A stretch of 64,000 bases of DNA from an uncultured delta proteobacterium (GCA_963727485.1 CAVSGM010000002.1:1504001-1568000), one strand, 5' to 3'; shown: positions 18,575 through 60,530, numbered from the stretch's first letter. The notes: a model not told the origin generated them from the sequence alone. A program made the numbers and translations.

Positions 18575-20791
18575 ATGGCGGACACCACCGATCTCGTGGT
18601 CATCGGCGGCGGCCCCGCGGGTGGCCTGGTGGCGGCCCTGGTCCGGCAGCAGGACCCGGACCGCCGGGTGGTGCTCCTCGAGCGGGGACGGTTCCCCCGC
18701 CACCACGTCGGCGAGTCGTCGATCCCCTCGTGGCGGCCGATCCTCGAGCGGGCCGGGGTGCGGGAGAAGGTCGACGCCGCCATCCGCACCCGGAAGGTGG
18801 GCACCATCTTCTGGTGGGGCACCAGCGAGGATCGGACCTGGACCATCGACTTCCGCGACACCCGCACCGGCGGCGCGCCCCCGGCGAGCTACCAGCTCGA
18901 CCGCTCGGTCTTCGACCAGGTGCTCCTGGACCACGCCGCCGAGCTCGGGGCCGAGGTGCACCAGGAGGCCACGGTCACCGCGGTGACGCCCCTGGGCTCC
19001 GGGCGCCACCGGGTCACCTGGCAGGCCGGCGACGAGACCCACCACCTCGAAACCGACTACGTGGTCGACGCCTCGGGACAGGCGAGGCTCCTCGCCCGGC
19101 TCTTCCGCCTGCCCCTGGTGGGCTTCGACGACATGAACAACTTCGCCGTGGTCGGCTACTGGCGGGGGAGCAAGCTCGCCCAGTACGACTGGCCGGTGGC
19201 CGAGCACGAGCGCTGGACCTACATCGCCGCCTCCGACGACGGCTGGGTCTGGCACATCCCCCTCGACGGCGACCTCGTGAGCGTGGGGCTGGTAACCGAC
19301 GGAGACTCCCTGCCCAAGGGGGGCGCCTCCGAGCTCGAGGCCCACTACCTGCGCAACGTCCGCGCCTGCCCCCCGGTGGCGGCGCTCCTCGAGGACGCCA
19401 CCCTCGACCGCCACCCCCTGGCCCCCCAGGCCCTGACCACGGTGCGGGACTGGTCCTATCACTGCGAGGAGGCCTGCGGCCCCGGGTGGTTCGTCGCCGG
19501 CGACGCGGCGGTGTTCGTGGATCCGGTGCTCTCCAGCGGGATGCTACTGGCGGCCAACGGCGCGTCCATGGCCGCCAACGCCCTCCACACCCTGTGGCGC
19601 GACCCGGCGGTGGACCCGGCCCTGCTCCGCCGCAGCTACACCGATACCTACCGGGACATGGCCGGCAGCTACCACCGCCTGGCGCGCATCTGGTACGCCC
19701 GGAACTTCAAGGCCTCCACCTGGCACTGGGAGGCCAAGCGCCAGCGGCTGATGGCCGGGGGCCGCGCCGACGCCGAGACCGACGCCCGCGCGTTCCTCGC
19801 CCTCTGCCTCGGCTCGTTCACCAACCCCCTGGAGGCGGCGATCCGCGGGGATCGGGGAGACCTGCTCCGGCCCGACGCCCGGATCTACGCCGGCCACCTC
19901 TTCGCCGACGACGTCCGCGACAATCCCCTCTACGCCGTCCTCGACGACGCCACCGAGACCGGCGCCACCGAGACCGAGACCCGGGCGGCAATCCGGGCCG
20001 ACACCGCCCGGCAGTGGCAGCGGATGCTCCATGCCCGCCCCCGCCTCAATCACTGCACCTGGGAGACCCGGGAGAGCTACGTCACCGACGGGTACCTCAA
20101 TCACTGGGAGCGGGTGCGGCTCATCGAGGTCCGGGCCCGCGCCGAGGACGACGCCTTCGGGCGGGTGATCCTGCCCTCCCCCGAGGTCGCCCGGGACGGG
20201 GTGCTGCCCTTCCTCGACGGGCGGCGCACCCTCGCCGAGGCGCTGGAGGCGGCGGCCGCGGACACCCCGGTGGGCTCCCAGGCCTACGACGAGCTCCTCG
20301 AGGGCCTCCAGTACCAGATCTTCCAGCTCGACTTCCGCTGCTGGCTCGACGGGGTGGCCGAGGCCCCGCCGGCGCCGACCCCCGAGGCCCTGCCCGCGCC
20401 CCTCGAGGCGGTGCTCCGGGGCGAGACCGGCGGGCCGGCGGCGCGCTTGGAGATCGGGCTGCTGGGAGAGACGGCGACGGTGCGCTTCGAGGACGACTCG
20501 GCGCCCTGGACCCTCACCCGCCTCGACCGCTCGCCCGAGGGCTACCGCTACGCCGCCTCGGCGACCACCGCCTTCGCCTACCGGGGCCGTGACCTGGCCC
20601 CCGAGGCCCGGGCGCGCCTCGACGACCTGGTGGCGGCGCTCCGGCGCCTCGAGGCATCGGACCCGGAGGGCGCGGACGGCCTCTGGCCCCGGATCCTCGG
20701 GCCCCGGGCCGGGGAGGTGGTGGCGCCGGCCGCCGCTGCCGAGCTCCCCGACCTCACCGAGCCGCCCCCGGCCGTCGACGGGGTCGGGTGA
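18575..20791 (+). CDS. Flavin-dependent halogenase-like enzyme with C-terminal RRE/PqqD-like region
   Basis: GGGPAG, HHVGES, TRKVG, WVWHIP (WxWxIP), GDAAVFVDPVLSSG; C-terminal FLDGRRTLAEAL. Confidence 0.88.
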   Translation: MADTTDLVVIGGGPAGGLVAALVRQQDPDRRVVLLERGRFPRHHVGESSIPSWRPILERAGVREKVDAAIRTRKVGTIFWWGTSEDRTWTIDFRDTRTGGAPPASYQLDRSVFDQVLLDHAAELGAEVHQEATVTAVTPLGSGRHRVTWQAGDETHHLETDYVVDASGQARLLARLFRLPLVGFDDMNNFAVVGYWRGSKLAQYDWPVAEHERWTYIAASDDGWVWHIPLDGDLVSVGLVTDGDSLPKGGASELEAHYLRNVRACPPVAALLEDATLDRHPLAPQALTTVRDWSYHCEEACGPGWFVAGDAAVFVDPVLSSGMLLAANGASMAANALHTLWRDPAVDPALLRRSYTDTYRDMAGSYHRLARIWYARNFKASTWHWEAKRQRLMAGGRADAETDARAFLALCLGSFTNPLEAAIRGDRGDLLRPDARIYAGHLFADDVRDNPLYAVLDDATETGATETETRAAIRADTARQWQRMLHARPRLNHCTWETRESYVTDGYLNHWERVRLIEVRARAEDDAFGRVILPSPEVARDGVLPFLDGRRTLAEALEAAAADTPVGSQAYDELLEGLQYQIFQLDFRCWLDGVAEAPPAPTPEALPAPLEAVLRGETGGPAARLEIGLLGETATVRFEDDSAPWTLTRLDRSPEGYRYAASATTAFAYRGRDLAPEARARLDDLVAALRRLEASDPEGADGLWPRILGPRAGEVVAPAAAAELPDLTEPPPAVDGVG

Positions 20792-22647
20792 CGGCCATGC
20801 GGACCCAGCGCGTCGCCACCAACGAGACCTGCAACCAGAACTGCCCGTTCTGCAACGCCCGGCGTCCGGCCGAGGACCCGGCGTTCGTGGCCCGGTCCCG
20901 GGTCCTGGAGCGCATCGCAGGGGCCGCGGGCGCCGAGGAGCTGGTGCTCACCGGCGGCGAGCCCACCCTCCGCCGGGACCTCCCGGCGCTCATCGCCGCC
21001 GCCCGGGACGCCGGCGCCGGGTCGGTGGTCCTGGAGACCAACGCCACGGTGGTGGACGCCGCCCGGGCCCGGGGCCTCGCCGAGGCGGGCCTCACGCTGG
21101 CCCGGGTCCACCTGCCGGGCTGGGGCGACGCCTACGAGTCGGTGACCCGCAATCCCGGGAGCTTCGCGGCGGCCCTCGCCGGCGTCCGGGCCCTCGCCGG
21201 CGCCGGGGTGGCGGTGGAGCTTGCCGTGCCCCTGGTGGCGGGAACCCTGGACGCGGCCCCGACGATCCCGGCGGCGGTGCAGGAGGCCGGCCTCCCGGTG
21301 CGGGCCCTGGTCCTCGGCTGGCCCGTCGAGGGCCCCGATCCGGGTGCCCTCCTCGCCCCCGGGGACGCCGCCGCGGCGGTGGAGGCGGTGGAGGCCGAGG
21401 CCCGGCGGGTGGACCTGCCGGTGCGCCTCGCCGACGACGCGGCCCTGCCCCCGTGCCTCTTCGCCCACCCGGCCCGGGTGGCCCACCTCTTCAGCCTCAC
21501 CCGGGGCGGCAGCGCCCGGCCGGGGCTCGCCCACCTGCCCGCCTGCGACGGCTGCGCCGTCCGCGACCGGTGCCCGGGCCTCGCCGAGGCGACCCTCGCC
21601 CGGCACCCGGACCTCGAGGTCACACCCATCGTCGAGGACCGCCTCCGGCGCCGGCTCTCCACCATCGCCGACGTGGGCGCCCAGGTGGACCGGGAGCTCT
21701 ACCAGGACGACATGTACCGCCGGGAGACCGGCGAGGCGGTGCCCTCGCGGATCGTCCGGGTGAACTTCCGCTGCAACCAGGCGTGCACCTTCTGCTTCGT
21801 CTCCACCCACCTCCCCGCCGCCGACGACGCCGCGGTGGAGGCGGCAATCGTGGAGATGGCGCGCCAGGGCGGGGTGGTGGTCCTCTCGGGCGGCGAGCCC
21901 ACCCTCAACCGCCGGCTCCTCGACTACGTGCGCCTCGCCCGCCGGGAGGGCGCCCCGGAGGTGGAGCTGCAGACCAACGCCATCAACCTCGGGGACCGGG
22001 CGCGGGTCGACGCCCTGGTCGAAGCCGGGGTGACCCAGACCTTCATCTCCCTCCACGGGCCCACCGCCGCCATCTCCGACACGGTGACCCGGGCCCCGGG
22101 GACCTTCGAGAAGACCGTCGCCGGCATCGACCAGGTGGTGGCCGCCGGCCTCACCGCCCGGCTGAACTTCGTGTTCTGCCAGGCCAACCTCGAGAGCTTC
22201 CCCGACCACGTGGACCTGGTGGCCCGGCGCTGGCCCGGCGCCGAGCTCGCCGTGAGCTTCGTCGCCGCCTCCACCGACGTGGTCCCCCGGAGCCGCGAGC
22301 TGGTCCCCCGCTACGTCGAGGTCCTCCCGGCCCTCGCCGAGGGGATGCGCCGGGCCGAGGCCACGGGCCTCAGGGTCCTGGGCTTCGAGTCCATGTGTGG
22401 CATCCCCTTGTGCCTGGTGCCCCGGAGCCTCGAGAACTACCTCGACCTCGCCACCGTGCCCCCGGGCTTCGACCAGGGCGAGTTCCTCCACGCCGAGGCC
22501 TGCGAGGGCTGTGACCTCAAGGGCCGGTGCTTCGGGATCCGCCGGGGCTACGCCGAGCTCTACGGCACCAGCGAGTTCCAGGCGGTGCGGCTCAGCGACT
22601 CGGCGGCAGACGGTCCAGGTCCCGGGTCCCCGCCGCCAGGGGGCTGA
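20788..22647 (+). CDS. Tandem two-domain radical SAM protein (HxsC-like)
   Basis: CNQNCPFC and CNQACTFC, each with GGEPT and each followed by PxC...CxxCx5CxG. GTGA overlap with the halogenase stop. Confidence 0.9.
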   Translation: MTAMRTQRVATNETCNQNCPFCNARRPAEDPAFVARSRVLERIAGAAGAEELVLTGGEPTLRRDLPALIAAARDAGAGSVVLETNATVVDAARARGLAEAGLTLARVHLPGWGDAYESVTRNPGSFAAALAGVRALAGAGVAVELAVPLVAGTLDAAPTIPAAVQEAGLPVRALVLGWPVEGPDPGALLAPGDAAAAVEAVEAEARRVDLPVRLADDAALPPCLFAHPARVAHLFSLTRGGSARPGLAHLPACDGCAVRDRCPGLAEATLARHPDLEVTPIVEDRLRRRLSTIADVGAQVDRELYQDDMYRRETGEAVPSRIVRVNFRCNQACTFCFVSTHLPAADDAAVEAAIVEMARQGGVVVLSGGEPTLNRRLLDYVRLARREGAPEVELQTNAINLGDRARVDALVEAGVTQTFISLHGPTAAISDTVTRAPGTFEKTVAGIDQVVAAGLTARLNFVFCQANLESFPDHVDLVARRWPGAELAVSFVAASTDVVPRSRELVPRYVEVLPALAEGMRRAEATGLRVLGFESMCGIPLCLVPRSLENYLDLATVPPGFDQGEFLHAEACEGCDLKGRCFGIRRGYAELYGTSEFQAVRLSDSAADGPGPGSPPPGG

Positions 22648-24946
22648 CCTCCAGGGGCAGGCCCAGGGCCGCGCACCGGGCCGAGAGGCGATCCACCGCG
22701 GCGGCGGCGTCGGCGAGGCGGTCGAGGCCGACCGCGTCGAGGGCGACCTCCAGGCGCAGCTGGCCGGCCCCGAGCGTCCGGGCGAGGTCCGCGTAGTCGG
22801 CGACGGCGTCGAGGACACCGGCGGAGAGGGGTAGCCGCAGCTCCAGGCCTTCGAGCCCCGCCGCCGTCAGCGCCCGGATCCCCGCCACCGCCTGGTCGAA
22901 GCCCCCGGGGTCCCGGCTGCAGGCGTCGGCGAGGTCGGCCCGGGGGCCGAAAAGCTTGACGCTGGCCCCGGCGAGGCCCGCGCGCACCGCCGCCTCGGCG
23001 AAGCCGGGCACCGAGAACCGCCGGCCGTTGGTCACCACCGCCACCGTGCGTCGGTCCTCCCCCCGGGCGCGGCGTACCAGGGCCAGGAACCGCGGGTGGA
23101 CCGAGGGCTCGCGGCCGGCGAGGATCACCGGGCGCCCCGTGGTCCGGGCGGCGTCGACCCGGGCGGCGGCGGCGGCCTCGGCGTCGTCGAGCCAGCGGTC
23201 CCGGTGGGCGCAGGTGGGGCAGCCGTTGTTGCAGGCCCCGGCGAAGGCCACCAGGGCGCCGTGGTCGCTGGTGCCGCGGGGGGGTGCGCCTGCCGGGCGC
23301 GCCGGGGACAGGAGGGCGTCGAGGCGGGCCCCGAGGGCGTCGAGGCCGGCGACGACCCGGTCGGCGAGGGCGGGCACCGCCGCCTCGTCGCCGGCGTGCC
23401 GCCGGGCGAAGGCCACCGCGGCGGCGAGCTGCCCGGCCTCGGTCTCGTGGCCCAGGCGATCCCGGAGGCGTCGCGAGAGCCGTAGGCGAGCCGGGTCCCC
23501 GGCTCGAGGAAGCGCCAGGGGTGCTCGGGGTTGTAGCCCTTGCGCCGGCCAGCCCCGGCGTCGCCGTCGTCCCAGTGGTCGAGGAGGGCCCCGTCCCGGC
23601 GCGCGGCGTGGGTGATGGGCAGGTCGTGGTAGAGTCGCAGGCGGTTTCTGCCGAGCTCGTCGAAGAGCTCGCCGAGGCCGTGGCGGCGGAGGCGTCCCAG
23701 GCTCTCGTCGAGGTCGTCGAGGCTGGTCCAGGGGCTCCAGAGGATGAGGCTGTGGCCCCGGGCCCGGGCGTAATCGAAGGCGCCGGGGTGGTCCGCGGCG
23801 AGCTTGCGCATCGCCGCGATGGAGGCGACCAGGGCCTCGGCGTCGAGGCCCTTGTTGTAACGGACGAGCTCCCGATCGCTGAAGCTCTCGAAGCCGGTGA
23901 GGTAGAGCTCCACGGTCTGGCCGGTCTCCTCGGCGGCGGCGATGGCGGCCTCGGCGAGGCGGCGCTGGCGCCCGAAGGCGTCGGCCCGGGCGGCGAAGAG
24001 CCAGCGCACGGGCGGCACCCCCGCGGCCCGGGCCGCCCGGACCAGGTCGCCGAGGTAGCGCAGGGCCGCCTGGTCCCCGAGGACCAGCTCCTCGAGGTCG
24101 GGGGTCCGGTCGGCGAGGTAGCGCGCCTGGTCCACCAGCTCGGCGACCACCTCGGGGGCCGGGCGCTTCTGGTAGTCGCCGCCCATGGCGCAGAAGGCGC
24201 ACCCGAGCCGGGCGATGCCGGCGCCCTCCGGGAGCGCCACCCCGGCGTAGTGGGGGTTCGCCGCGGGGTCCTCGGCGTAGGGGCACCCCACGTCGCCGAA
24301 GAGGGTGCGCCGCACCACCTTCGGCGCCGGCTCGAGGCAGATGACGTCCTGGTCGAGGACCGGGGCGTAGGGCACCGCCGGTGCCGGGTCCGCCGGGGGC
24401 CCGGCCACCACCTCGCCGCCGGCACCCACCACCGTCACGCCCGGCGCCCCCCGGACCTCGGCGCCCCGGGAGAGGCGTTCGACCAGGGCGGCGAAGCCCG
24501 CCTGGAGCTCGGGGATCGTGGGCGTCCGGCGGGTGACGCCGCCCCGGGAGGTCCCCACCGCGAGGCCCACCGCGTAGCGGATCCCCTCGGAGACGTCGAA
24601 GGACTCGCCCCGGGACACCAGGACGCTGGCGGCGCCGGGTCGCCGGCGGAGGTGGGCGGCGATGGGCGCCGGGATCGAGGAGGCAATCGACGACCACGAG
24701 GTCCACCTGGTGGGCCTCGAGCCACTCCTCGAGGCGCCGGGCCACCTCCCGGTCCCGGCCCGGATCCCGGCCGTCGTAGTAGACGCGCACCACCCGGCCC
24801 CGGTGGCCGGCCCGGCGGGCGTCGGCGCACAGGAGGCCCAGCAGGGTGTCGGGGAAGAAGCCGTCGGCGGGCTCGCCGTAGGGGAGCACGAACCCCAGGG
24901 AGAGGGACCGGGTCTCGGCCGGCGTCTCGGTGGCTCGGTGGGTCAT
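22592..24946 (-). CDS. Two-domain radical SAM protein: atypical GC-x27-CxxC domain plus CxxxCxxC domain (frameshifts near 24670 and 23480)
   Basis: Pieces from two frames: MTHRATET...; GDVGCPY-(insert)-GCAFC...GFESFS; CNNGCPTC...AGREPS...VTNGRR. Confidence 0.72.
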   Translation of the reverse strand: MTHRATETPAETRSLSLGFVLPYGEPADGFFPDTLLGLLCADARRAGHRGRVVRVYYDGRDPGRDREVARRLEEWLEAHQVDLVVVDCLLDPGAHRRPPPPATRRRQRPGVPGRVLRRLRGDPLRGGPRGGDLPGRRHPPDAHDPRAPGGLRRPGRTPLPGRRGPGGAGRDGGGCRRRGGGRAPGGPGTGGALRPGPRPGRHLPRAGAEGGAAHPLRRRGVPLRRGPRGEPPLRRGGAPGGRRHRPARVRLLRHGRRLPEAPGPRGGRRAGGPGALPRRPDPRPRGAGPRGPGGPALPRRPGPGGPGRGGAARALALRRPGRRLRAPAPPRRGRHRRRRGDRPDRGALPHRLRELQRSGARPLQQGPRRRGPGRLHRGDAQARRGPPRRLRLRPGPGPQPHPLEPLDQPRRPRREPGTPPPPRPRRALRRARQKPPATLPRPAHHPRRAPGRGPPRPLGRRRRRGWPAQGLQPRAPLALPRAGDPARLRLSRRLRDRLGHETEAGQLAAAVAFARRHAGDEAAVPALADRVVAGLDALGARLDALLSPARPAGAPPRGTSDHGALVAFAGACNNGCPTCAHRDRWLDDAEAAAAARVDAARTTGRPVILAGREPSVHPRFLALVRRARGEDRRTVAVVTNGRRFSVPGFAEAAVRAGLAGASVKLFGPRADLADACSRDPGGFDQAVAGIRALTAAGLEGLELRLPLSAGVLDAVADYADLARTLGAGQLRLEVALDAVGLDRLADAAAAVDRLSARCAALGLPLEVSPLAAGTRDLDRLPPSR

Positions 24947-25098: not shown

Positions 25099-28000
25099 AT
25101 GACGTCCCCTCCAACCAAGGTCGCGCCCCCCGAGACCGGGGCCGTGGTGGTCCTGGGGAGCACCGGGCGCCTGGGGCCCGCGGTGCTCCGCGCCCTGGCT
25201 CCCCGGCCGGTGCGGGGCCTCTCCCGTCGCCTCCCGGGCCCCGACGAGGCGAAGGCACCGGTCTTCGTCGAGGCCGACCGCCGGGATCCCGAGGCCCTCC
25301 GCCGGCTGGTGGACGGGGCGGCGGCGGTGGTGGACCTCCTCGCCTTCGACGCCGGGGACGCCGACGCCCTCCTGCAGGCGGTGGCCGCCGCCGACGCGCC
25401 GCCAGGCCACCTGGTCTTCGTCTCCTCGGTCGCCGAGCTCGACCGCCCCCGGCCCGGCGCCCCGGCGGGCCCCGACGGCGCCTACGGCCGGGGCAAGCGC
25501 GCCGCCCGGCGGCGCTACGAGGCCGGCTTCCCCGGGACCGTCCACACCCTGGTGCTCCCGCGCCTGGTCGCCGAGGTCGACCCGGGCCTGCGCGACCGGC
25601 CCTACCTGGAGAGCGCGGCCGGGGGACGGGTCCTGGTCGCCGGGGACGGGTCTCAGCGCCAGACCGTGGCCCCGGTGGTCGGGGTCGCCGAGGTCGTCCG
25701 CCGCCTGGTCGACGACCCGAACGCCCTGCCCCCGGGGCCGGTGGTGGTGGGCCCGCCGGCGCCGGTGACGGTGTCCGAGCTGGTCGAGGCCCTCCTCGCC
25801 GGCGCGGGCCTCGAGGTGCCCCTGGCCCGGCACCCGGACCGGGACTGGCGCGGCCCCCACGGCGGCGGCGACGAGAATCCACGACACCTCGGCCCTCGCC
25901 CGGGCCTTCCCCGACCTCGCCTGGCCCGATCCCCGGGCGGTGAGCCGGCGCCACGGCGCCTGGCTGTGCCGGCACCTCCCCGAGGAAGCGCGGCCCCGGG
26001 ACACGGTGCAACAGCGCCAGAAGGCCTTCCGGGGGCACCGGGTGGTCGACGTCCACGGCGTCCGGGAGCCGCCGGCGCTCGCCGAGCCCCGCCCCGAGCT
26101 CGCCGAGCTCGCCGGGTGGCTCTCGCCGGCCTTCTACGTCGACACCGGCCGCCCCTGCAACGCCGCCTGCCTCTACTGCGCGGTCTCCCCCCACGCGGAC
26201 ACCGAGGGGTTCACGCCGCTCTCACGCTTCGACGACATGATCGCCGCCGGAAAGGCCGCCGGGGCCACCCGGGCGATCCTCATCGGCGGCGAGCCCACCA
26301 TCCACCCCCAGCTCGACGCCCTCCTCGGCCTTCTCGCCGACGCCGGGCTCCCCCGGGGGCACGTGATCATGACCAACGGCCTGCGCCTCGCCGACCCGGC
26401 GCGGGTCGACGCCCTGGTGGCCGGGGGCGTCGAGACCTTCCACCTGTCCATCGACACCGCGGACCCGGCGGTCTACCGGCGCCTCGCTCGCGGTGCCGGG
26501 CGTCTTCAGACCCAGCACCAGGCCCTCGACGGCCTCCTCCGGCGCTCGGAGCTGAACGTCTACGTCTACACCTGCGTCTCCCGGATGAACGCCCCGGGGC
26601 TCGGCGACCTCCTCGCCGACGTCGCTCGCCGGGCCGGGGCCGCCGGCCGGGCCCCGCCCCCGGTGGTCCTGGGCTTCGCCAAGCCCATCGGCGACGGCCT
26701 CACCCACGCCGACGCCCTCATCCCGCCCCCGGCCAATCGGGCCCGCATCGCCCGAGCGGCGGTGGCCGAGGCCGACCGCCTCGGGGTCCCCCTCGGCCTG
26801 CGCAACCTCCAGTCGTGCCTCGCCCCGGAGCTGGTGCGCCGCTCGGTGGACTACTACCTCGAGGACTTCTCGGTGGACCTGGAGCGACGGTCCCGGGTCC
26901 CCTACGCCCACGCCGAGTACTGGCGCCAGGGGGCGCCCTGCCACGCCTGCGCCGACCGGGGGGTGTGCACGGGGATCTACGAGGATGACCTCTCGCGGTT
27001 CGGGGCCGACGCCTTCCGGGCCCTCGCCGAGGACCCGGCCCTGGCGTCGCCGGCGCCGGTGCCCCCCGACGCGCCGCGGGAGGCGCCCGCCCGGGAGGAC
27101 GACGCGCCGGCGGTGGGTGACGCGTGGGAGGCGGGTGACGGACCGGAGGTGGACGACGCGCCGGCGGTGGGGATCCTGCGCCTGGCGGCCGCCGGCCACC
27201 GGCGCTTCCTCCTGCTGACCGAGGACCCGGCCGGCGCGCGCCCCTGCCTTGCCCGGGCCGGGGGCTTCGGCCTCTCCTACGAGGGCACCCTCTCGCCCCC
27301 GGCGCTCCGGGACACGGTGGTGTCCCTGGGCCAGCGCTTCGCCGCCGGGCCCCAGGACCCGGGCCCCCTCGACCGGGCCGTCGACCTGCTCCGCCGGGCC
27401 GCCGGCCCGGGCGCCGACCTCACCGAGGTGCGCCGCCTCCCCCGGGGGCAGCGCCTGGCCCGGTGGTCGCCCCGCCGGCGCCACGCGCCCCCGGCGACGG
27501 GCCCAGCCCTCTGGCCCTTCAATCCCGAGGTCCTGGGCCTCGTGGCGGGGACCCGGCGCCTGCTCAAGCGCGAGGTGGCCCGGGGCGACGACGCCGACAC
27601 CGAGACCGCGCGCCTCGTCGCCCGGGGCCTGGCGGTGCGAGCGGTGGACACCGGGGAGGCGGTGGTGCTCCTCGCCGCGCGGGAGGCCGGGGAGGCCGCC
27701 GCCGCCGAGGACGCCGAGCGCGCCCTGGGCCGGGGCGACGACGCCGACGCGGTCCGGCACCTGGGCGAGGCGCTCGGCTACCCGGCCTGCTGCGTGGCGG
27801 CAATCCAGGACGTGGGCAGCCACGACGACCTCACCCTCCGGGCCACCTGCCTCCCGCCCGCGGGCACGGCCCCGGCGCCGCCCCAGACCCAGTGGCTCCT
27901 CCCCGCCCTGGCCCTGGTGTCCCACGTCCCCTGCGGCCTCGACTGCGCGGCCACCTCGGCCCTGGCCAATCGCCTCCTCGCCGCCCTCGACGCCGACTGC

Positions 28001-28279
28001 CCGGGCTTCGCCGACCGCTGGCGGGCCCTGGCCCGGCGCCTCCACCTGGTGGACCGCGAGGGCCGCGCCTTCTCCCTGGCCCTCGAGCCCGGGCCCCTCG
28101 ACGGCGGCCGGGTGGTGGACGCCCTGCACCTGGCCCTCGACCCCTCGGCCCCGGGCGGGGTCCGCCTGGTGCCCCGGGGCGACCTCGCCGGCGCCCGGGT
28201 GGCGCTCTCGGCGGCGGGCGTGGCCCTCCGGGGGGCCGGCGCCCTCGAGGCCGCCCTCGCCGCCGACCACCGGGGGTAG
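25099..28279 (+). CDS. NAD-dependent epimerase/SDR - radical SAM - Cys-rich (DUF483-like) fusion (+1 frameshift near 25876)
   Basis: GSTGRLG and YGRGK; CNAACLYC, GGEPT, CHACADRGVCTG; LGYPACC and SHVPCGLDC. Removing one A joins the frames as DEIHDTSALARAFP. Confidence 0.75.
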
Positions 28280-49180: not shown

Positions 49181-49183
49181 CGC

Positions 49184-51401: not shown

Positions 51402-51485
51402 GGCCGCGCCGCCCGGATGCACGTCGGCCGGACCGCCTTGGGGGCAGCCCGGCCGAAGGGGTTGCGGGGTCGGCTGCGGGGTCGG

Positions 51486-51803
51486 CTACCAGGACCCGTG
51501 GGACCCGTGCGAGCCGTGGGACCCGTGCGACCCATGCGAGCCGTGCGAGCCGTGGGACCCGTGCGAGCCGTGGGACCCGTGGGAGCCGTGCGACCCGTGG
51601 GAGCCGTGCGAGCCGTGGGAGCCGTGCGAGCCGTGGGAGCCGTGCGACCCGTGGGAGACGTGCTGCGCCAGCAGGCGCCCGCCACCCGGGACCTCACCCG
51701 CCTCGGTCGCGGACGCGGCCTCCTTGGACGAATCCTTCAGCTCGTGCTCCAGCTCGGAGAGCAAACCCTTGGAGCGCTTCTTGTACTTGGGAATCTTTGC
51801 CAT
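51486..51803 (-). CDS. hxsA: His-Xaa-Ser repeat precursor peptide (HxsA-like): 47-aa leader + HVS-(HGS)18-W
   Basis: Direct translation; AAGGGG ribosome-binding site; lies immediately downstream of hxsB. Confidence 0.93.
51492..51662 (-). repeat. 19 tandem 9-bp units encoding His-Xaa-Ser
   Basis: Units CAY-GGS-TCS (first unit CAC-GTC-TCC). Variation among the HGS units is synonymous only. Confidence 0.95.
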
Positions 51804-51828
51804 GAACGGCCCCTTGACGTTCCAGCCC

Positions 51829-53356
51829 CTACGACTCTGCCGGCGACTCTACCACGTCGTCTGCAGGGTCGGAAGTGTGAAGGAAGTGGTCCCGGGGACG
51901 GTTGGTGGTCCACCTACGGAAGACCTCCAGGGTCCCGGGGTCGGCCTCGCCGAGCTTCCCGAAGAGGTAGTCCTGGATGCCCTTGATCGCGTGGCACCAG
52001 GCGCTGTCGCGCATCCGACCGCCCAGGCTCCCCTGGTGCCGGTAGTTGTACTCCGGGGAGATCCCACAGAACGGGTGGTAGGCGCAGTTCACGCAGTCGG
52101 GGCTCGAGTCGAGGATCGAGGCGAGGGTCACCGCCCGGGTGGTCTCGTGCTCCATGAGCGCCTGGTAGCTCGAGGTGTCCACGTGGCCGATGTGGAACAT
52201 GTCGTCCCCCATCTCGTGGAGCATCCGGCCCTCGTCGCTGGTGAAGATGAGCCCGTCGTAGTTGTAGGCGAGCCCGCCGATGCCGGCGCCCGCAGGGGTT
52301 GCGCAGATCGAGGAAGTTCGGGTCCTCGCCGCCGAGGATCTTGGTGAGGAGGATGGCGGCGTAGCGCTCCAGGATCTGGGTGCCCTGGAGGTTGAGCTGC
52401 ACCATGTAGTCGACCGCCTCGGCGTAGAAGTCGAGGTAGGCCCGGCGGTCGTAGTCGACCTTCTGCCCGGTCTTGGCGGCGAAGCCGAAGGGATCGACCG
52501 GGCGGAGGAAGAGGGCCCGGCACCCGAGCTCGACGTAGGTGTCGACAATCTCGCGCGGGTACTTCAGCGCCTCCTTGGTGGTCGTGAGCAGCGCCTCCAC
52601 GTGGTAGAGCGTGGTGTCGAGGCCGCGCTCGGCGTAGGCCTCGTTGATGCGCTTGATCCACTTGGTGGCATGCGAGAAGGCGTCGCCGCCGGGGAGGATC
52701 CGCTGCTTGTTGTGCAGGTGCTTGGGCCCGTCCACCGAGGTGCACATCTGCACCTTGTTGTCGAGGAGGTAGTCGAGCTTCTCCTCGGTCATCAGCGACA
52801 TGTTGGTCACCAGGGTGAACTCGAGGCTCTTGCCGAGGGTCTCGTTCTTCTTCTTGGCGTACTCGATGATGTGCTGCATCACCGGGTAGTTCACCAACGG
52901 CTCGCCGCCCTGGAACTCGAGGGTGACCCAGGGGCTGGTGGTCTCGAAGGCGAGATCCACCATCTTCTCCGCGGTCTCCTTGGACATGTCGGTCTGCGTC
53001 GCCTCCATGCCGGCGCGGCTGGCGTGGCAGTAGACGCAGGTCTCGTTGCACCGCAGGGTGACCACGGCGATGTGGAGGTTGGGGCCGTAGTGCAGGAAGC
53101 GCTGGCGGGCGGCCAGCCGCTGGGCCAGGTCGTCCACGTCGACCTCGGCCCGGAGGAAGTTCTTCTCCTTGAGGGCCTGATAGGTCTCGGAGGTCGGGTC
53201 CAGGCTCCCGTCCACGAAGGCCCGGAACTCCGCGGGCTCGAGGAGGTGGAACTGGCCCACCTGGTTGGTGACCAGGTAGCGCTCCCCCACCACCCGGTAG
53301 CGGAAGAAGGCGGGGAACGCCGGGTCGATCTGCTCCACCTGGGCGAGCTGCCTCAC
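51829..53356 (-). CDS. hxsB: His-Xaa-Ser system radical SAM/SPASM maturase HxsB (+1 frameshift near 52290)
   Basis: [36 protein letters not shown]...YNYDG...[19 protein letters not shown]-terminal RRE-like region; adjacent to the HxS precursor. Confidence 0.9.
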
Positions 53357-53574
53357 TGGCCCCCCCGCTTCTCTTCGATGGTGAGCGCCAGGGCGTAGTT
53401 GCCGAACTCGCCGGCGACCTCGTCCTCGTCGGCGTCGTCCTTGGCGGTCAAGGCAATCTCGAAGTAGGGCATCTTCTGGGTGGAGGCGATCTCGGCGACC
53501 TCGTCGAAGACCTCGGCGGTGGTCTCGAGGGCGGCGGCCGAGTAGGCCTGGTGGTGGAAGCGCAGGTGCCGCAC
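53353..53574 (-). CDS. HxsD-like small protein
   Basis: F...YS..AL...EFGNYAL pattern resembles the upstream HxsD; its stop overlaps the hxsB GTG. Confidence 0.72.
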
Positions 53575-53577
53575 CGG

Positions 53578-54102
53578 TCAGCCCCCCGCCGCCTGGTCGT
53601 CGCCACCGTCCGCCGGGGGCGGGCCCTTGGGCGCACCCTCCTTGGGGGCCTCGGCCTCGCCCTGCTTGCCGTACTTCTCCTCCCAGCTCATGGCGATGCC
53701 GAGGGGATCCTCGAAGGCGTCGTCGGAGAAGTCCATGTCGCCGGCGAGGTCGTCGAGGCTGGCGGTGCCGGTGGCCCCGGCGAGCGCCTGGGCGGCCACC
53801 GCCTCGATGATCGGCTTGTTGTACTCGGTGATCTCCCGGCGCCAGGCCTGGGACAGGAGCTCGTTGGCGAACTCCCCGGCGAGCGCCGAGAGGTCGTCGG
53901 CGGAGAGGGCCTCGCGCCCCCGGAGCACCACCTGCACGTGGGTCTCGTCGGGCACGTCGAGGAGGACGTAGCACCGGTCGATGAACACGTAGGCGGCGCC
54001 GTAGATGGCGTCGAGGGGGTAGAGGCTGCGCTCGAAGCGCACCTGCACCCGGTTGTCGTCGGCTTCGACCTGGATCTGGTCGAGCCCCTGGTCCTTGTCC
54101 AC
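53578..54102 (-). CDS. hxsD: His-Xaa-Ser system protein HxsD
   Basis: [19 protein letters not shown]...[16 protein letters not shown]...[10 protein letters not shown]; operon position. Confidence 0.82.
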
Positions 54103-54228: not shown

Positions 54229-56028
54229 ATGGCCGCCTCGCCCCCCTCGCCCCTGCGCCGCCTCTGGCGCCAGGCCGCCGCCCACCGCCGGCAGGTGGCC
54301 CTGGCGACCGGCTGCTCGATCCTCAACAAGGCCTTCGACCTGGCGCCCCCGGTGCTCATCGGGATGGCGGTGGACATCGTGGTCCGCCGGCAGGGGAGCC
54401 TCCTGGCCCACCTGGGCGTCGCGGCCCCCCGGGACCAGATCCTGGTTCTGGCCGGGCTCACCTTCGTCATCTGGGCCCTGGAGAGCCTCTTCGAGTACCT
54501 CTACGCCATCCTCTGGCGAAACCTCGCCCAGACCGTGCAGCACGAGCTGCGCCTCGAGGCCTACGCCCGGGTCCAGAGCCTGGAGCTCGCCTACTTCGAG
54601 GACCGGTCCACCGGCGGGCTGATGGCGATCCTCAACGACGACGTCAACCAGCTCGAGCGCTTCCTCGACGGGGGCGCCAACGACCTGCTCCAGGTGGCCA
54701 CCACCGTGGTCCTGGTGGGCGTCGCCTTCTTCACCCTGGCCCCGAACATCGCCTGGCTGGCGTTCCTCCCGATCCCGGTGATCCTCTGGGGGTCGTTCCG
54801 GTTCCAGCGGCGCATCGCCCCGCGCTACGCCGCGGTCCGCGCCCAGGTCGGGGTCCTCTCGGCCCACCTCGCCGGGAGCCTCGGGGGCATCGCCACCATC
54901 AAGAGCTTCACCACCGAGGCCCGGGAGGTGGCGCGCCTCGCCGCCGCCTCGGACCGCTACCAGGACGTCAACCGCGACGCCATCCGCCTCTCCTCCGCCT
55001 TCAGCCCCCTCATCCGCGTGGTGATCCTGGTCGGCTTCACCGCCACCCTGGTCTACGGCGGCTTCGAGGCCCTCGCCGGGACGCTGGCCGTGGGCGCCTA
55101 CAGCGTCATGGTCTTCCTCACCCAGCGCCTGCTCTGGCCGCTGACCCGCCTGGGGCAGACCTTCGACCTCTACCAGCGGGCCATGGCCTCCACCACCCGG
55201 ATCCTCGACCTGGTGGACACCGAGCCGGCCATCGTCTCCGGGGCCTCGCGCCTGCCGGTGGACGCGGTGCGCGGCGCGGTGCGCTTCGACGACCTCTGCT
55301 TCGCCTACCACCCGGACGCGCCGGTCCTCGAGCACCTCGACCTCGAGGTCCCCGCCGGGGAGACGGTGGCGGTGGTGGGGGCCACCGGCTCCGGGAAGAC
55401 CACCCTGGTCAAGCTCCTCCTGCGCTTCTACGAGGCGTCCGGCGGGCGGATCACCGTCGACGGCCGCGACGTGCGGGACCTCGACCTCGGCGACCTCCGC
55501 CGCGCGGTGGGCCTGGTGAGCCAGGACGTGTTCCTCTTCCACGGCACCGTCCGCGAGAACATCGCCTACGCCCGCCCCGACGCCTCCGAGGCCGAGATCG
55601 TGCGGGCGGCCCGGATCGCCGAGGCCCACGCCTTCATCGAGGCGCTCCCCGACGGCTACGACACGGTGGTCGGCGAGCGGGGGCAGAAGCTCTCCGGGGG
55701 CCAGCGCCAACGGATCTCCATCGCCCGGGCGGTCCTCAAGGACCCGCCGATCCTGGTCCTCGACGAGGCCACCAGCGCCGTGGACAACGAGACCGAGGCG
55801 GCGATCCAGCGCTCGCTCGCCCGCCTCTCGGTGGGCCGGACCACCCTGGTCATCGCCCACCGCCTCTCGACCATCCGCCACGCCCACCGGATCGCGGTCC
55901 TCGCCGGCGGCCGCCTGGTGGAGTCGGGGACCCACGACGAGCTCCTCGACCGGGACGGGATCTACGCCTCGCTGTGGAAGGTGCAGACCGGCGAGGTCGT
56001 CCCCGAGGTCGAGGCGGCCGCGGGGTAG
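54229..56028 (+). CDS. ABC exporter, fused permease/ATP-binding (MsbA/MdlB-like)
   Basis: TM domain, [31 protein letters not shown]. Confidence 0.95.
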
Positions 56029-56131: not shown

Positions 56132-56773
56132 ATGAATACCTACCGATCGCTGATGACGCTGGTGTTCTTCTCATTCACCTTCTCAGCCCTGGGGTGCGGG
56201 GGAGGCTTCGATCTTCAGGGGGCGCGAGCCGGGAGCGGGTTCGATGTCAACGCCGAGGGATGGACGATCACGGGCGACGCGCAGGCCGCGCACGTCAAGC
56301 CCGACTACAACGGCACCGGCGGCAACCCCGGTGGCCTCATCAGCGCGGTCGACGACGTCACCGGGGGCACCTGGTACTTCCAGGCACCGAGCAAGTACAT
56401 GGGCGATGCCAGCTCGACCTATGGCAAGTCGCTTCGCTTCGACCTGAAGACGACGGACGTGTCGAACCCCTTCGACAACTTCGACGTCATCCTCTCCGGC
56501 GCGGGGAAGGTGCTGGTGTTCAACACCGCCAACAACGCCGCGGTGGGGAAGTGGACCTCGTACAAGGTCAAGCTCGATGAGACCGCCGGGTGGGGGGTCA
56601 TCAACGCGGTGGGCGACAGCTACCCTTCCGACTGGAGCACCCTCCCCAAGCCCTCGGCCGCCGATTTCAAGGCCGTCCTCGGAGACGTCACCCAGCTTCT
56701 CATCCGCGGCGAGTTCAACGACGGGCCCGACACCGGCTTCCTCGACAACGTCCGCTTCGGCACCCCCAACTGA
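56132..56773 (+). CDS. Lipoprotein with laminin B (IV)-like domain
   Basis: Lipobox ALGC; WYFQAPSKYMGD...YGKSLRFDL and FKAVLGDVTQLLIRGEF...LDNVRF resemble laminin B domains. Confidence 0.72.
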   Translation: MNTYRSLMTLVFFSFTFSALGCGGGFDLQGARAGSGFDVNAEGWTITGDAQAAHVKPDYNGTGGNPGGLISAVDDVTGGTWYFQAPSKYMGDASSTYGKSLRFDLKTTDVSNPFDNFDVILSGAGKVLVFNTANNAAVGKWTSYKVKLDETAGWGVINAVGDSYPSDWSTLPKPSAADFKAVLGDVTQLLIRGEFNDGPDTGFLDNVRFGTPN

Positions 56774-57042
56774 TCCGGCTTCGGGTCAGTCGGTGTAGGC
56801 CACCGCGACCCAGCGCCCGTACTTCTTCTTGAAAACGGCGACGTAGCCGTGTCCGCCGAGGTCGGCGATGGCCACCCAGGCGTCCTTCAGGTCCAGCTTG
56901 CCGAGGCGGGCCGGCGGCGGGCCGTACTGCTGGACCATGGCGTCGGCCGGGAGCGTCTTCATCCCGTAGAGGGGCAGGCGGGAGAAGTCCTTGCCCTGGA
57001 AGAGCTCGGTGAGCAACTCGTCGACGGTGGGGCCGTCGCCGT

Positions 57043-57756
57043 CAAGTCCGGTGGGCGGAGCCCGAGCGTGGGCCAGGCCTCGTCGGCGCGGCACCGTGGG
57101 CAAGCCCAGGTGATCGAGGATACGGCGGACCACCGCGGGCTCCATGATCACCGCGACGACCTCCACCCTGCCTTGGCACTCGGGGCAGGTGGTGAGGTCG
57201 TGCCCGAAGACGCGCTTCAGCAGGTCGGCCCAGGGTATCCGGCGCTGGCGGACGTCGCTGGGCGGCTCCCAAGGCTGCCCACCGCTCCGGCTCGAGGTCG
57301 ATTGCTCGGGGTTCTGGCCCTTCGGGGGGACGAAGGCGGCCAGCCGGCGCAGGAGGTCGACCGGATCGAGTAGCAGCTGGCTGCGACCATCGCGCAGCGG
57401 CTTTCGCAGGCGATAGTAGACCTCGCCCCGCGTGCCCTCCTCCAGGCGGTGCTCGGCGAAGGGAGGCCGCAGACCGTAGCGCAGGATCCGCTCGAGGCCG
57501 GCCCGGTCATTGGGGTTGAAGGCGACGAGCTGCTCTCCGATGGACCGGCCCAGCTCGGCTGCGAGAACACGCCGTCGGGGAGGAAGCTGTGGAAGTGCAA
57601 GTTGAGGTTGAGTGCGTCGCCGAAGCGCTGGATGCAGGTGATGGAGCCAGCGAGGGGCCGTGCCACCCCGTTGCGACGGGCGCGACGGCAAAGCCAGGCG
57701 AAGAGCACCCGCTGGAAGACTCCGAGGACAGGCGTGACCAGCTCGGGACGCGTCAC
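57043..57756 (-). mobile_element. Degenerate IS91-family (Y2 rolling-circle) transposase fragment
   Basis: QRFGDALNLNLHFH, LRYGLRPPF, WADLLKRVFGHDLTTCPECQG...RILDHLGLP. Frameshifted, N-terminally truncated, internal segments missing. Confidence 0.82.
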
Positions 57757-58223: not shown

Positions 58224-60530
58224 CTAGATTGCGGCGTTGACGTCGTCCTCGGTGAACTCCCACGGCAGCTCCTTGGAGGCCTTCAGCTCGTAGAACCCGC
58301 CGCAGAAGATCTTGTGGGGGCACGCCTCGCACTCCTCGTGATGGCTGCGCTGCGCCTTGAGGTACTCGAAGAGGTTCACGTCGGTGTTGTTCACGAACAC
58401 CATGTGCCGCTCGAGCTTGAGCAGGTCGCCCATCATGAACCGCTCGTAGCCGGGCATGAAGCAGAACGGGAGGTTGATGACCTGGAACTTCATCTTCCCC
58501 TCCCACCGGTCGATGACCGACATGGCCACCTTCGCCGCCGCGGCGGTGTCGGGGTTGACGAACACCGTGGCCCGGCCGAAGGGGGTGAGGAACTGGAGGT
58601 TCATCCACCGCAGCCCCAGGTCCCAGGCGAGCTCGGCCATGGCCGGCAGGTGGGCGTAGTTGCTCTTGGTGACGGTGACGTTCATCCCCAGCTCGACCCC
58701 CAGGGGCCGGTGCTTCACCGCGTGGCGGACCCCGGCGCAGGTCTGCTCGAAGGCCTCGGCGACGCCCACGTTCTGGGCGTGGGTCCTCGCGTCGTGGCCG
58801 TGGATCGAGAAGAGCAGGGTGGTCAGCCCCGAGCGCGTAAGGCTCCGGGCGAAGTCCTCGTAGACCAGGCGCCGGCCGTTGGTGGTGACGTTGATGCGCC
58901 GGTAGCCCAGGGCCCGGGCGTGGCGCACCAGGGGGATGATCTCCTCGTAGAGGGTGGGCTCGCCGCCGTCGAAGTCGACGAGATCGAGGCCCTGGGCCCG
59001 GTAGCGGGCGAGGATCTTCTTCTGGTTCTCGAAGCTCCCGTCGAGCTGGGTCCGGGTGCCCACCGCACAGAAGGTGCAGCGGTTGTTGCACCGGTAGGTG
59101 ACGTTCATGATCACCTTCCGCGGCCCGCGGCCCGCCTCCAGGCGCCGGTCGAAGGTCCACTTGAAGCGGCGGAGCTCCTCGGCGGTGAAGTCCTCGGAGG
59201 TGGTCACCGGGGTGTGCTGGAAGAGCGGCCCGAAGTCGTCGACCACCGGCAGGGGGGTCTTCGCCGCGGCGGCGGCGGTGTCGGCGAGGCGGGTGCCCGG
59301 CAGGGGCGTGGCGAACTGCACCCCGGGCCAGGCGCCGTAGGCCTCGTGGAGGTGCAGGGCCCAGTCGAGGGTGGTGTTGATCTGGGCCTTGGTCTCCCCG
59401 GGCATCCCGATGATGAAGTGGACCAGGGTGGGGATCCCGCGCGCGGCGGCGCCGGCGACCGTCTCCTCGACCCGGGCGAGGTCGAGGTTCTTGCCCACCA
59501 CCCGGTCGACCACGCCCTGGTCGCCGCTCTCGGCGGAGACCGAGAGGGTGGCCACGTGGCCGGCCATGGCGTCGAGGTGCGCCTCGGCCACCCAGTCGGC
59601 GCGCATCCCGTTGGGGAAGTCGAAGGCGAGGTCGTGGGGGGCGAGGGCGGCGAGGAGGGCCTCGAAGTGGCCCGGGTCGACGTTGACCATCTCGTCGAGG
59701 ACGTCGAGGCGGGTGGCGCCGTGCTCCCGGACCAGGGCGTCGACCGCCCGCGCCAGGTAGGCGGCGTCGTACCGGCGCTGGGTCTTCTTCTTCCCCTGGC
59801 GGCCGGGGTTCGAGGAGCAGTGGGCGCACCGGTAGGGGCAGCCCCGGCTGGAGACCATCGGCAGGGTCCGCCCGTCCACCGGGAAGGCCCAGGGCCCGCG
59901 ACCCAGGCCCGCGACCACCCGGGCGAGGAAGGCGTCCCGGGCGGGCAGATCGACCAGGTCCCAGGCGGGCAGCGGCAGGGCCGAGAGGGCGTCCACCTCG
60001 CCGCCGACCACGGTCTCGGGGACCTCGGGGCGGCCGCCGTCGAGGAGGCGCTGGAGGAGGGGCACCAGGGCCTCCTCGGCCTCGTACTTGAGGAGGGCGT
60101 CGACCTCGGGGTAGCTCGCCAGGGTCCCCTGGCCCGGCGCCTCCACGTAGTGCTGCCCGCTCTGGTAGAGGTCGGCGAGGACCACCGGCGCCTCCGGGAG
60201 GCGCGCCCGGAGACCCTCGAGGAGGGCCCCGAGGAGGGGATCGCGCCGGGGCGGGCGGTGGAACGGCGTGAGGGTGACCACCACCGCGTCGGGGGTGCCG
60301 AGGGCCCCGAGGACCTCGTCGAGGCCCGCGCCGAGGCGGACCCTGTCGCCGTCGAGGTCCTCGAGGGTGCTCCCGGGGAGGGCGAAGGCGTCGAGGAGGC
60401 GCACCTCGAGGCCCGCCTCCCGGATCACCGCCGCCGCCTGCGCCCCGGCGAGGTCGCAGTGGTAGGGGTAGTCGATGAAGTCCCGGGAGAGCCGGAGCGG
60501 CGGCTGGACGACGAGGACCCGAGGGGTCAT
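58224..60530 (-). CDS. B12-binding-type radical SAM domain fused to a second HxsC-like radical SAM domain
   Basis: RVLVVQPP, YEAEE, LPLPAWDL, SRGCPYRCAHC, SAESG, FIIGMPGET; then CNNRCTFC, GGEPT, NLPFC, CEACPHKIFCGG. Start may be 60554. Confidence 0.88.
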   Translation of the reverse strand: MTPRVLVVQPPLRLSRDFIDYPYHCDLAGAQAAAVIREAGLEVRLLDAFALPGSTLEDLDGDRVRLGAGLDEVLGALGTPDAVVVTLTPFHRPPRRDPLLGALLEGLRARLPEAPVVLADLYQSGQHYVEAPGQGTLASYPEVDALLKYEAEEALVPLLQRLLDGGRPEVPETVVGGEVDALSALPLPAWDLVDLPARDAFLARVVAGLGRGPWAFPVDGRTLPMVSSRGCPYRCAHCSSNPGRQGKKKTQRRYDAAYLARAVDALVREHGATRLDVLDEMVNVDPGHFEALLAALAPHDLAFDFPNGMRADWVAEAHLDAMAGHVATLSVSAESGDQGVVDRVVGKNLDLARVEETVAGAAARGIPTLVHFIIGMPGETKAQINTTLDWALHLHEAYGAWPGVQFATPLPGTRLADTAAAAAKTPLPVVDDFGPLFQHTPVTTSEDFTAEELRRFKWTFDRRLEAGRGPRKVIMNVTYRCNNRCTFCAVGTRTQLDGSFENQKKILARYRAQGLDLVDFDGGEPTLYEEIIPLVRHARALGYRRINVTTNGRRLVYEDFARSLTRSGLTTLLFSIHGHDARTHAQNVGVAEAFEQTCAGVRHAVKHRPLGVELGMNVTVTKSNYAHLPAMAELAWDLGLRWMNLQFLTPFGRATVFVNPDTAAAAKVAMSVIDRWEGKMKFQVINLPFCFMPGYERFMMGDLLKLERHMVFVNNTDVNLFEYLKAQRSHHEECEACPHKIFCGGFYELKASKELPWEFTEDDVNAAI

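Follow-up and report, generated by a model that had tools for sequence, protein, structure and literature searches.

The original prediction of His-Xaa-Ser (HXS) systems is credited to Haft and Basu (PMC9062424). In Escherichia coli, HxsB, HxsC, and HxsD are all required for processing of the peptide HxsA, HxsC binds HxsD, and the canonical system uses matured periplasmic HxsA to keep phage DNA from entering (PMC13128918). The same source finds genes arranged as HxsD-HxsB-HxsC-HxsA in 99.6% of canonical systems; as the one experimental paper, it reports no more than a +8 Da change at a single motif, and its enzymes could not be reconstituted (Li et al., Nat Commun 2026, PMC13128918). Here we describe an HXS locus in a 64,000-nucleotide stretch of DNA from an uncultured delta proteobacterium (GCA_963727485.1 CAVSGM010000002.1:1504001-1568000; G000:C2:1504001-1568000 in our numbering), hereafter termed the window, that contains 12 HxsC-like radical S-adenosylmethionine (SAM) domains. 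Our reading, drawn from sequence comparison and held with moderate confidence, is that this is an enlarged type-4 locus whose twelve mostly ancient, non-redundant HxsC-like domains likely act successively on HxsA4, a (His-Gly-Ser)24-Trp peptide.

The host assembly (G000) comprises 5.55 Mb in 14 contigs. Because a guanine-plus-cytosine (GC) content of 68-79% leaves all six reading frames open, genes were called by third-codon-position GC together with family scans. Comparisons included four genomes of the same family but of different genera (G001-G004). The phylum sampled for broader counts is most likely Myxococcota, judging from the named sources of the nearest homologs, which are Myxococcota metagenome-assembled genomes (MAGs), including Polyangiaceae, Minicystis, Archangium, Sandaracinaceae, Nannocystaceae, and Chondromyces. 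The locus is an HXS system of type 4, with an HxsA-type peptide, HxsB, HxsD, HxsD_rel, and HxsC4 all present and a peptide hydroxylase homolog convergent with HxsC4:

46193-47435, plus strand: homolog of alpha-ketoglutarate HExxH-type peptide beta-hydroxylases (TIGR04267, 90.7 bits, cut-off 40), apparent frame change near 46900
47405-48457, minus strand: HxsC4, which is radical SAM domain D10 (NF038332, 546.8 bits, cut-off 500)
51486-51803, minus strand: HxsA4 precursor (NF038313, 120.5 bits, cut-off 55)
51829-53356, minus strand: HxsB, radical SAM/SPASM maturase, divided between two frames near 52294
53353-53574 (ends approximate), minus strand: HxsD_rel small protein (NF038315, 57.6 bits, cut-off 41)
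53578-54102, minus strand: HxsD (TIGR03976, 62.1 bits, cut-off 50)

The first frame of HxsB alone already exceeds the TIGR03978 cut-off of 370 (386.6 bits, profile positions 3-340); a further 148 bits (positions 336-466) lie in the other frame, and independent contigs remove the break. HxsA4 has a leader of approximately 50 amino acids, one HVS, 24 HGS repeats, and a final Trp. Since HxsA4, D10, and HxsD_rel pass NCBIfam cut-offs, the type-4 core was already catalogued. The type-4 models, however, include a single radical SAM enzyme, HxsC4 ('rSAM_rare_HxsC4'), and the window's other 11 domains have no model of their own. The literature searched holds no mention of HxsA4, HxsC4, HxsA2, HxsA3, or an HGS repeat.

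Comparison with canonical HXS (TIGR03976-03979) reveals clear kinship. HxsB and HxsD of the window pass the same curated models, the substrate is again a His-x-Ser repeat, and CxxxCxxC is again followed by a C-terminal PxC...CxxCx5CxG, with the same four Cys in four canonical HxsC of the phylum. The differences are equally clear. Canonical systems have one HxsC, whereas the window has 12 HxsC-like domains, none of which reaches the HxsC cut-off. The window's HxsA4 consists of leader, 24 uniform HGS repeats, and Trp, with no peptidoglycan-binding domain and no signal peptide found in its sequence. Gene order on the minus strand is HxsD, HxsD_rel, HxsB, HxsA4, with HxsC4 3 kb further; genes for a twin-arginine-signal protein, D11, and D12 lie between HxsA4 and HxsC4 in the opposite orientation. 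Beyond these genes, the window encodes methyltransferase and B12 radical SAM parts together with a predicted hydroxylase, predicted halogenases, and a predicted exporter.

Two of the core proteins show further features across loci. HxsD of ten loci from several families has an invariant C-terminal DPLGIAxSWEE(K)Y motif after a variable acidic linker (alignment A3), and DPLGIAxSWEE is a candidate docking peptide for radical SAM partners. HxsA4 of the window and its nearer relatives has a non-secretory leader ending LAQH(C/V)SH. In G042, G068, and G081, which belong to another family of the phylum, HxsA4 opens with a signal of twin-arginine-like type (TRRDLL). These leader sequences suggest two export routes for one HxsA4 peptide family.

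The radical SAM domains, numbered D1 to D13, are encoded as follows, in addition to D10 (tail at 47494, minus strand); tail denotes the C-terminal CxxCx5CxG:

20788-22647, plus strand: D1-D2 tandem gene, 619 amino acids (D1 20794-21669, tail at 21544; D2 21736-22632, tail at 22501)
22595-24890, minus strand: D3 gene, degenerate B12-type/radical-SAM-like N-terminal part and D3 (22601-23269)
25099-28279, plus strand: D4 gene, Rossmann/epimerase-like N-terminal part, D4 (26120-27046, tail at 26939), Cys-rich C-terminal part
28335-30251, plus strand: D5-D6 gene, tail-less D5 (28332-29108) fused to twitch-type D6
30278-31828, plus strand: D7, HxsC-like (30284-31237, tail at 31112), with a C-terminal domain kept in three sister genera
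37554-39359, plus strand: D8, HxsC-like (37548-38453, tail at 38349), with a second CxxCx5C and a SAM methyltransferase domain
39353-41023, plus strand: D9, HxsC-like (39419-40351), with a second PxC/CxxCx5CxG module at the C terminus (tail at 40904)
49184-50160, plus strand: D11, HxsC-like (tail at 49972), frame changes near 49690, 49857, and 50063
50170-51401, plus strand: D12, HxsC-like (tail at 50973), one frame change at 50382/50383
58224-60788, minus strand: D13, B12-type radical SAM N-terminal part fused to an HxsC-like domain (58230-59126, tail at 58331)

Six-frame scans recovered CxxxCxxC motifs for 13 domains, from 20830 to 59090, and all ten of the tails that a sequence-only reading of this DNA had quoted. 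That reading had also ascribed CN-x2-C-x-[FY]-C to about 11 domains, and 11 indeed carry it (D1, D2, D4, D5, and D7-D13); the variants are CNNGCPTC in D3 and CNYDCLMC in D6. D6 is a different, twitch-type radical SAM (NF033640, 57.8 bits). The other 12 domains score 190-335 bits, D11 and D12 in pieces, on an HxsC-like profile that was made from the window's own domains, making these in-window scores circular. Elsewhere in the genome the profile finds four comparable domains (C1:652318, C11:943151, C2:398112, and C2:399030); 12 of 16 thus lie within 20.8-59.1 kb, or 0.7% of the genome. Radical SAM cores were also confirmed by Pfam (PF04055).

The 12 domains share the alignment blocks GGEPT, TNG, S-[IL]-HG, PG-F, [IL]P[LF]C, and CxxCx5CxG. 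All have the three cluster Cys, and 11 have GGEP or SGEP; D3, at 205 bits on the profile, reads GREPS where others have GGEPT, and the N-terminal part of its gene matches PF04055 at 16.9 bits. In each of the ten tailed domains, 236-282 residues separate CxxxCxxC from the tail; D3 and D5 are without any tail. D4 keeps its tail and has LQSC in place of PxC, D8 has the additional CxxCx5C at 38730, and the tail quoted for D9 belongs to a second module approximately 226 residues after a degenerate first tail (CNRCYLQNLCDT). Four Cys (PxC and CxxCx5C) are invariant in 10 of the 12 domains and, together with the Gly, are kept in every orthogroup described below and in canonical HxsC, the exceptions being D3, D5, and the D9 orthogroup (OG_D9). 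All nine OG_D9 members have lost the first Cys and the Gly, and have the second, complete module.

Pairwise identity among the 12 domains is 19-34%, with the sole exception of D1/D5 (52%). The best NCBIfam match is HxsC4 or HxsC for 11 of the 12; D1 is a near tie, with moaA_archaeal at 60.3 bits and HxsC4 at 58.5. The sequence-only reading had proposed one subfamily, duplicated and diversified. By their best matches the domains are recognizably of one kind; a tree neither supports nor rejects the single clade. Diversification holds, given these identities and the separately conserved orthogroups described next (ultrafast bootstrap, UFBoot, 99-100). Expansion in the sense of a local burst of duplication does not: only D1/D5 is recent, the others being ancient paralogs brought together at a conserved HxsA4 system. 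Recent local amplification is thus rejected because the identities are too low.

The check that the same reading had proposed, one-to-one orthologs in other Hxs loci, gave a positive answer for D7-D13. Each of G001-G004 holds several HxsC-like genes; among 36 other genomes of the class searched, none had an HxsC4 match at E<=1e-20. A first tree of 55 rows, built from profile matches of at least 90 bits over more than 180 profile positions and including stretches from G001-G004, gave one-to-one orthologs for D7, D8, D9, D10, D12, and D13, and more weakly for D11. A second tree of 76 rows was built quickly and then carefully with IQ-TREE, after removal of seven rows that were either long or redundant (W_D6twitch, ownC3_282569m, L018_1m, L024_11892m, HxsC_L027, HxsC_L033, and HxsC4_P0031). 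Its orthogroups, with UFBoot and Shimodaira-Hasegawa-like approximate likelihood ratio test (SH-aLRT) support, were OG_D8 (10 rows, 100/100), OG_D9 (9 rows, 100/99), OG_D13 (7 rows, 100/99), OG_D10 (6 rows, 100/99), OG_D11 (6 rows, 99/90), OG_D12 (5 rows, 100/99), and OG_D7 (4 rows, 100/100). D12 plus canonical HxsC formed a group of nine rows (95/85). The tree thus places the D12 orthogroup as the sister of canonical HxsC, and we infer that D12-type enzymes are its counterpart.

All seven orthogroups are kept in sister genera, and for six of them conservation extends to other families of the phylum. Synteny is retained in G002, where contig C91 carries D7..D8-D9 and contig C19 carries D11-D12-HxsA4-HxsB-HxsD..D13. 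Fusion partners are conserved as well: loci of other families again show the methyltransferase of D8, the C-terminal module of D9, and the B12-type part of D13, and sister genera the C-terminal domain of D7. Among 301 sampled genomes of the phylum, HxsA4 exceeds its cut-off in 26, and HxsC4 is found at E<=1e-60 in nine, all of them HxsA4-positive. Canonical HxsC is above cut-off in 16, all in another family, and at E<=1e-40 there is none in G000, G002, or G003.

The approximately 40 kb around HxsA4 were also taken from seven more genomes, counting a domain as full-length at 130 bits or more over at least 220 profile positions. These loci have 2-6 full-length HxsC-like domains each (28 in all) and 13-59 repeats. 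All eight of their HxsA4 peptides, and the window's own, end in HGSW. Repeat number varies widely while paralogs stay at 2-6, and position-specific chemistry, one of the roles suggested in the sequence-only reading, is therefore unlikely. One enzyme per repeat is rejected because repeat and paralog numbers do not track.

The same reading assigned each domain a single auxiliary iron-sulfur site. Twitch and SPASM enzymes (BlsE 7vob, SkfB 6efn, SuiB 5v1s, anSME 4k36, and CteB 5wgg) resemble the window's domains in having a partial TIM-barrel core followed by a C-terminal Cys-rich auxiliary region. An AlphaFold2 model of HxsC4 (predicted local distance difference test, pLDDT, 88.6) had BlsE as its best Foldseek match, with a template modeling (TM) score of only 0.51, and aligned with many radical SAM enzymes by VIA-align (Z 17-20). 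Its C-terminal Cys region was aligned only by the SPASM enzymes SuiB, anSME, CteB, ChlB, and PqqE, the alignments of SuiB, anSME, and CteB (Z 17-19) reaching residues 339-341 of the model. A SPASM domain (TIGR04085 type) has seven Cys, two auxiliary clusters, and a CX2CX5CX3C motif. In contrast, the window's domains conserve four Cys, and Gly occupies the place of the fourth Cys of that motif. To our knowledge, no structure of the HxsC family has been solved. By sequence, solved structures match only the core (best BlsE, 113 bits). By analogy with twitch/SPASM enzymes, PxC and CxxCx5C would together hold one auxiliary [4Fe-4S] cluster. A single auxiliary cluster is consistent with the two 4Fe-4S cluster domains ascribed to E. 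coli HxsC and with the C342A/C345A mutant made there (PMC13128918).

The D1-D2 gene belongs to a widespread tandem family. Of 55 loci, drawn from named MAGs and Chondromyces apiculatus DSM 436, most hold orthologs with 45-60% identity; G001 has a full-length homolog (39%) in a different gene context. Starting from the Chondromyces locus, the only conserved neighbors around D1-D2 orthologs were further radical SAM paralogs, and the 37 loci of at least 12 kb include HxsB in four and HxsD in three. Among the 301 genomes, a D1-D2-type gene was found at E<=1e-80 in five, a count drawn from four scored candidates per genome. These are the same five genomes with HxsC4 over its cut-off, and all five are HxsA4-positive; HxsA4 also exceeds its cut-off in four of five further genomes carrying a D1-D2-type gene. 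The domain profile finds 4749 database clusters at E<=1e-30. Every one of the best 150 has 2-5 matched stretches, 142 have at least two CxxxCxxC motifs and 128 at least two tails, and one is from Nanoarchaeota MAGs. An AlphaFold2 model of D1-D2 (pLDDT 93.2, predicted TM score 0.86) suggests that the two domains are packed in a fixed manner. The existence of tandem and fused forms argues that HxsC-like domains work side by side. For the hetero-oligomer suggested in the sequence-only reading, the widespread tandem fusions and the D1-D2 model are indirect support only.

How such an enlarged locus would operate can be outlined. Each domain would cleave SAM at its CxxxCxxC cluster and abstract hydrogen from the peptide. 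By analogy with the E. coli HxsC-HxsD complex, HxsD and HxsD_rel would hold the HxsA4 leader and make the peptide available to the enzymes. HxsB and a D12-type enzyme would carry out the ancestral HXS step, with HxsC4, D11, D7, D8, D9, D13, and D1-D2 adding further radical steps per His-Gly-Ser unit. Methylation would come from the D8 (methyltransferase) and D13 (B12 part) fusions and hydroxylation from the HExxH enzyme; halogenases would add further marks in this lineage, and the product would leave through the ATP-binding cassette (ABC) exporter. As one tripeptide repeats perfectly along the substrate, what would set the paralogs apart is the type of reaction and not the repeat served. More tentatively, at least seven non-interchangeable HxsC-type enzymes plus HxsB could make a densely cross-linked, methylated, and hydroxylated polymer-like product from (His-Gly-Ser)n-Trp, as a new ribosomal peptide class or an envelope barrier material. 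This would be the largest dedicated radical-SAM assembly known for one peptide, a multi-enzyme complex organized by HxsD.

Several observations weigh against successive action of all twelve domains on HxsA4. D10 alone reaches a curated family cut-off; none of the other 11 reaches that of HxsC or HxsC4, and they score 46-143 bits on HxsC4 (NF038332). On the HxsC model (TIGR03977, cut-off 267.9) the best score is 108.9 bits, for the two domains of D1-D2 summed, D10 scores 90.5, and intact D12 orthologs score 104.5 and 92.1. A tree with eight other radical SAMs of the genome does not settle whether the HxsC-like domains are one clade: the HxsC-like label needs two changes, and D4 joins the outgroups on long branches. 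Orthogroup labels were taken from the very tree on which they were later counted, which is circular. D1-D2-type genes usually lie away from Hxs genes, with an HxS run in 4 of 53 loci, and the limit of four candidates per genome applies to their phylum-wide count. Co-occurrence counts are small and the sampled genomes are related to one another. D1 to D6 lie 20-30 kb from HxsA4, and searches of sister genera gave no orthologs for D3, D4, or D5-D6 (for D4, none in G001-G004). Finally, the frame changes of the D3, D4, and HExxH genes fall outside the stretch checked with independent contigs (49000-53600; see below).

The remaining genes of the map bear on the alternatives:

18575-20791, plus strand: Hal2, flavin-dependent Trp-halogenase-like, 738 amino acids (PF04820, 102.6 bits)
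32369-34213 (start approximate), plus strand: PMT_2-type membrane glycosyltransferase-like protein (PF13231, 27.7 bits)
34403-37537, plus strand: large protein, secreted or on the surface (G001, G002, and G003 have 34-37% identical matches by tblastn)
48536-49180, plus strand: twin-arginine-signal protein of no known family (tblastn, 37-44% identity)
54229-56028 (start approximate), plus strand: ABC exporter, fused membrane and ATPase parts (PF00664, 126.8 bits; PF00005, 115.5 bits)

In sister genera the large secreted or surface protein is kept between D7 and D8, and the twin-arginine-signal protein upstream of D11. Following D9 on the minus strand (40950-46135) are genes for a secreted protein, a PEGA-domain protein, and a Ser/Thr kinase, which adjoin the D8-D9 pair in three sister genera too. 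Between the ABC exporter and D13 lie a Laminin_B-domain protein (56132-56773) and a Y2-transposase-like fragment (56786-57691, minus strand; PF04986, 38.3 bits). Pfam gave no match for the D4 and D9 C-terminal parts, the twin-arginine-signal protein, orf40950, or HxsD, and NCBIfam gave none for the twin-arginine-signal protein or ten other window open reading frames (ORFs).

A role in defense is possible but doubtful. Here, with the biochemistry unchanged, HxsA4 once matured would act in the envelope or outside the cell as a barrier to phage DNA entry, and the extra paralogs would be an arms-race elaboration. The precedent is the canonical block on phage DNA entry introduced above (PMC13128918), and the twin-arginine-like signal on HxsA4 of G042, G068, and G081, the ABC exporter, and the conserved surface proteins all fit. 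However, the window's own HxsA4 is without signal peptide or peptidoglycan-binding domain, and its 24 uniform HGS repeats contrast with five HxS in E. coli HxsA (PMC13128918). PADLOC (2023 library, which has no Hxs model) returned generic radical-SAM-core pVip matches and none for HxsA4 or HxsD, and no mobile or defense-island context was seen, save the one transposase fragment.

Slightly less probable, and in our view unlikely, is that the window joins two neighboring systems. The left part (approximately 12-31 kb) would form a natural-product cluster of its own, with HxsC-like domains borrowed for another substrate, leaving only D7-D13 to serve HxsA4; it takes in two halogenases, D1-D2, the D3 and D4 genes, D5-D6, a membrane protein, and one more radical SAM. 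The D3 gene, the D4 gene, D5-D6, and the two halogenases are lineage-specific. D4 has no ortholog and D3 and D5 no tail, as would suit such a cluster; the halogenases, the D4 C-terminal part, the PMT_2-type protein, and the ABC exporter were found in none of 16 related contig stretches, and approximately 30 of 53 D1-D2-type loci show only the gene's own two radical SAM motifs. Gene arrangement argues otherwise, since the radical SAM genes from the D4 gene through D9 all lie on the plus strand (25099-41023), and those for D4, D5-D6, and D7 are packed in one direction with the conserved D7..D8-D9 block. The D1-D2-type gene also co-occurs by genome with HxsA4 and HxsC4, as counted above, and an HxS scan found no second repeat peptide in the window, other kinds of precursor not being searched for. 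Hal2 is translationally coupled to D1-D2, its stop overlapping the start of that gene by 4 nucleotides, and the D8 stop and D9 start overlap as well.

The D3, D4, and D5-D6 genes and the halogenases may decorate HxsA4 or may belong to a neighboring pathway. Precedents exist for peptide C-terminal Trp halogenases. Because all nine HxsA4 peptides end in Trp, C-terminal Trp halogenation of HxsA4 is conceivable. Other genes of the left part include the second Trp-halogenase homolog (14938-16470, minus strand; PF04820, 97 bits) and, between the halogenases, a metallo-beta-lactamase-fold-like ORF with HxHxDH (17829-18599, minus strand), which seems to shift frame into 17123-18280. A SPASM-type radical SAM at 12284-13378 (plus strand), with PqqE/NirJ-like best matches far below cut-offs, adjoins a DUF2079-like membrane protein. 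The Cys-rich C-terminal part of the D4 protein (27050-28276, plus strand; 400 amino acids, GYPACC ... HVPCGLDC) has no relative in the sister genera searched.

It is very unlikely that the paralogs are redundant, that is, interchangeable enzymes performing the same reaction for dosage or one per repeat group. A highly repetitive substrate and cofactor motifs common to all domains are what this would predict, but domains of such low mutual identity, in orthogroups conserved separately and each with its own fusion partner, do not look interchangeable, and repeat number does not follow paralog number in the seven other loci.

Mid-domain frame changes are seen in D11 (three), D12, HxsB, the HExxH gene, the D3 gene (two, near 23360-23480 and 24560-24680), and the D4 gene (near 25890; a standalone D4 start would be 25940). 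The sites are at approximately 23.4, 24.6, 25.9, 46.9, 49.7, 49.86, 50.06, 50.38, and 52.29 kb. In the same assembly rpoB (G000:C11:589009-593117) is likewise split over two reading frames; indel errors are therefore genome-wide, and pseudogene calls in G000 are unsafe. Contigs of four independent metagenome runs were placed on 49000-53600, with 0-2 mismatches per piece for the best of them, and they carry 1-nucleotide indels at 49857, 50063, 50382/50383, and 52294, four of the inferred break sites. Because the contig indels sit at inferred breaks and rpoB is also split, the frame breaks are probably assembly indels, not gene decay, and the genes intact in the organism. Weakest of all is thus the idea of a decaying locus, in which the frame changes (at least eight apparent ones within 22.6-53.4 kb) would be real and many radical SAM genes pseudogenes of a once larger system: besides the evidence just given, third-codon-position GC is high on either side of every break and orthologs in G001-G003 are intact. 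The near-identical contig pieces came from runs X1, X2, and X4, labeled salt marsh metagenome, and X3, labeled sediment (shares 0.14-0.36); as to habitat, these labels are only a hint.

The enlarged type-4 locus that we favor bears on the chemistry of HXS systems. New here are the cross-family orthogroup analysis, the sister link between D12 and HxsC, and the association of HxsA4 with the D1-D2 tandem family. Type-4 loci offer a uniform (HGS)n substrate and a graded series of conserved enzymes with distinct fusion partners, such that steps could be removed singly. Because its group is the sister of canonical HxsC, the D12 type is a lead for the first enzyme to try, and a cultured carrier, Chondromyces apiculatus DSM 436, has both a D1-D2-type gene and HxsA4. 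OG_D7, OG_D8, OG_D9, OG_D11, OG_D12, OG_D13, and the D1-D2 type have no family model of their own, and their proteins are now annotated just 'radical SAM' or 'MoaA-like'. Seven unnamed radical SAM orthogroups are thus defined, together with a tandem-domain family that spans thousands of database clusters.

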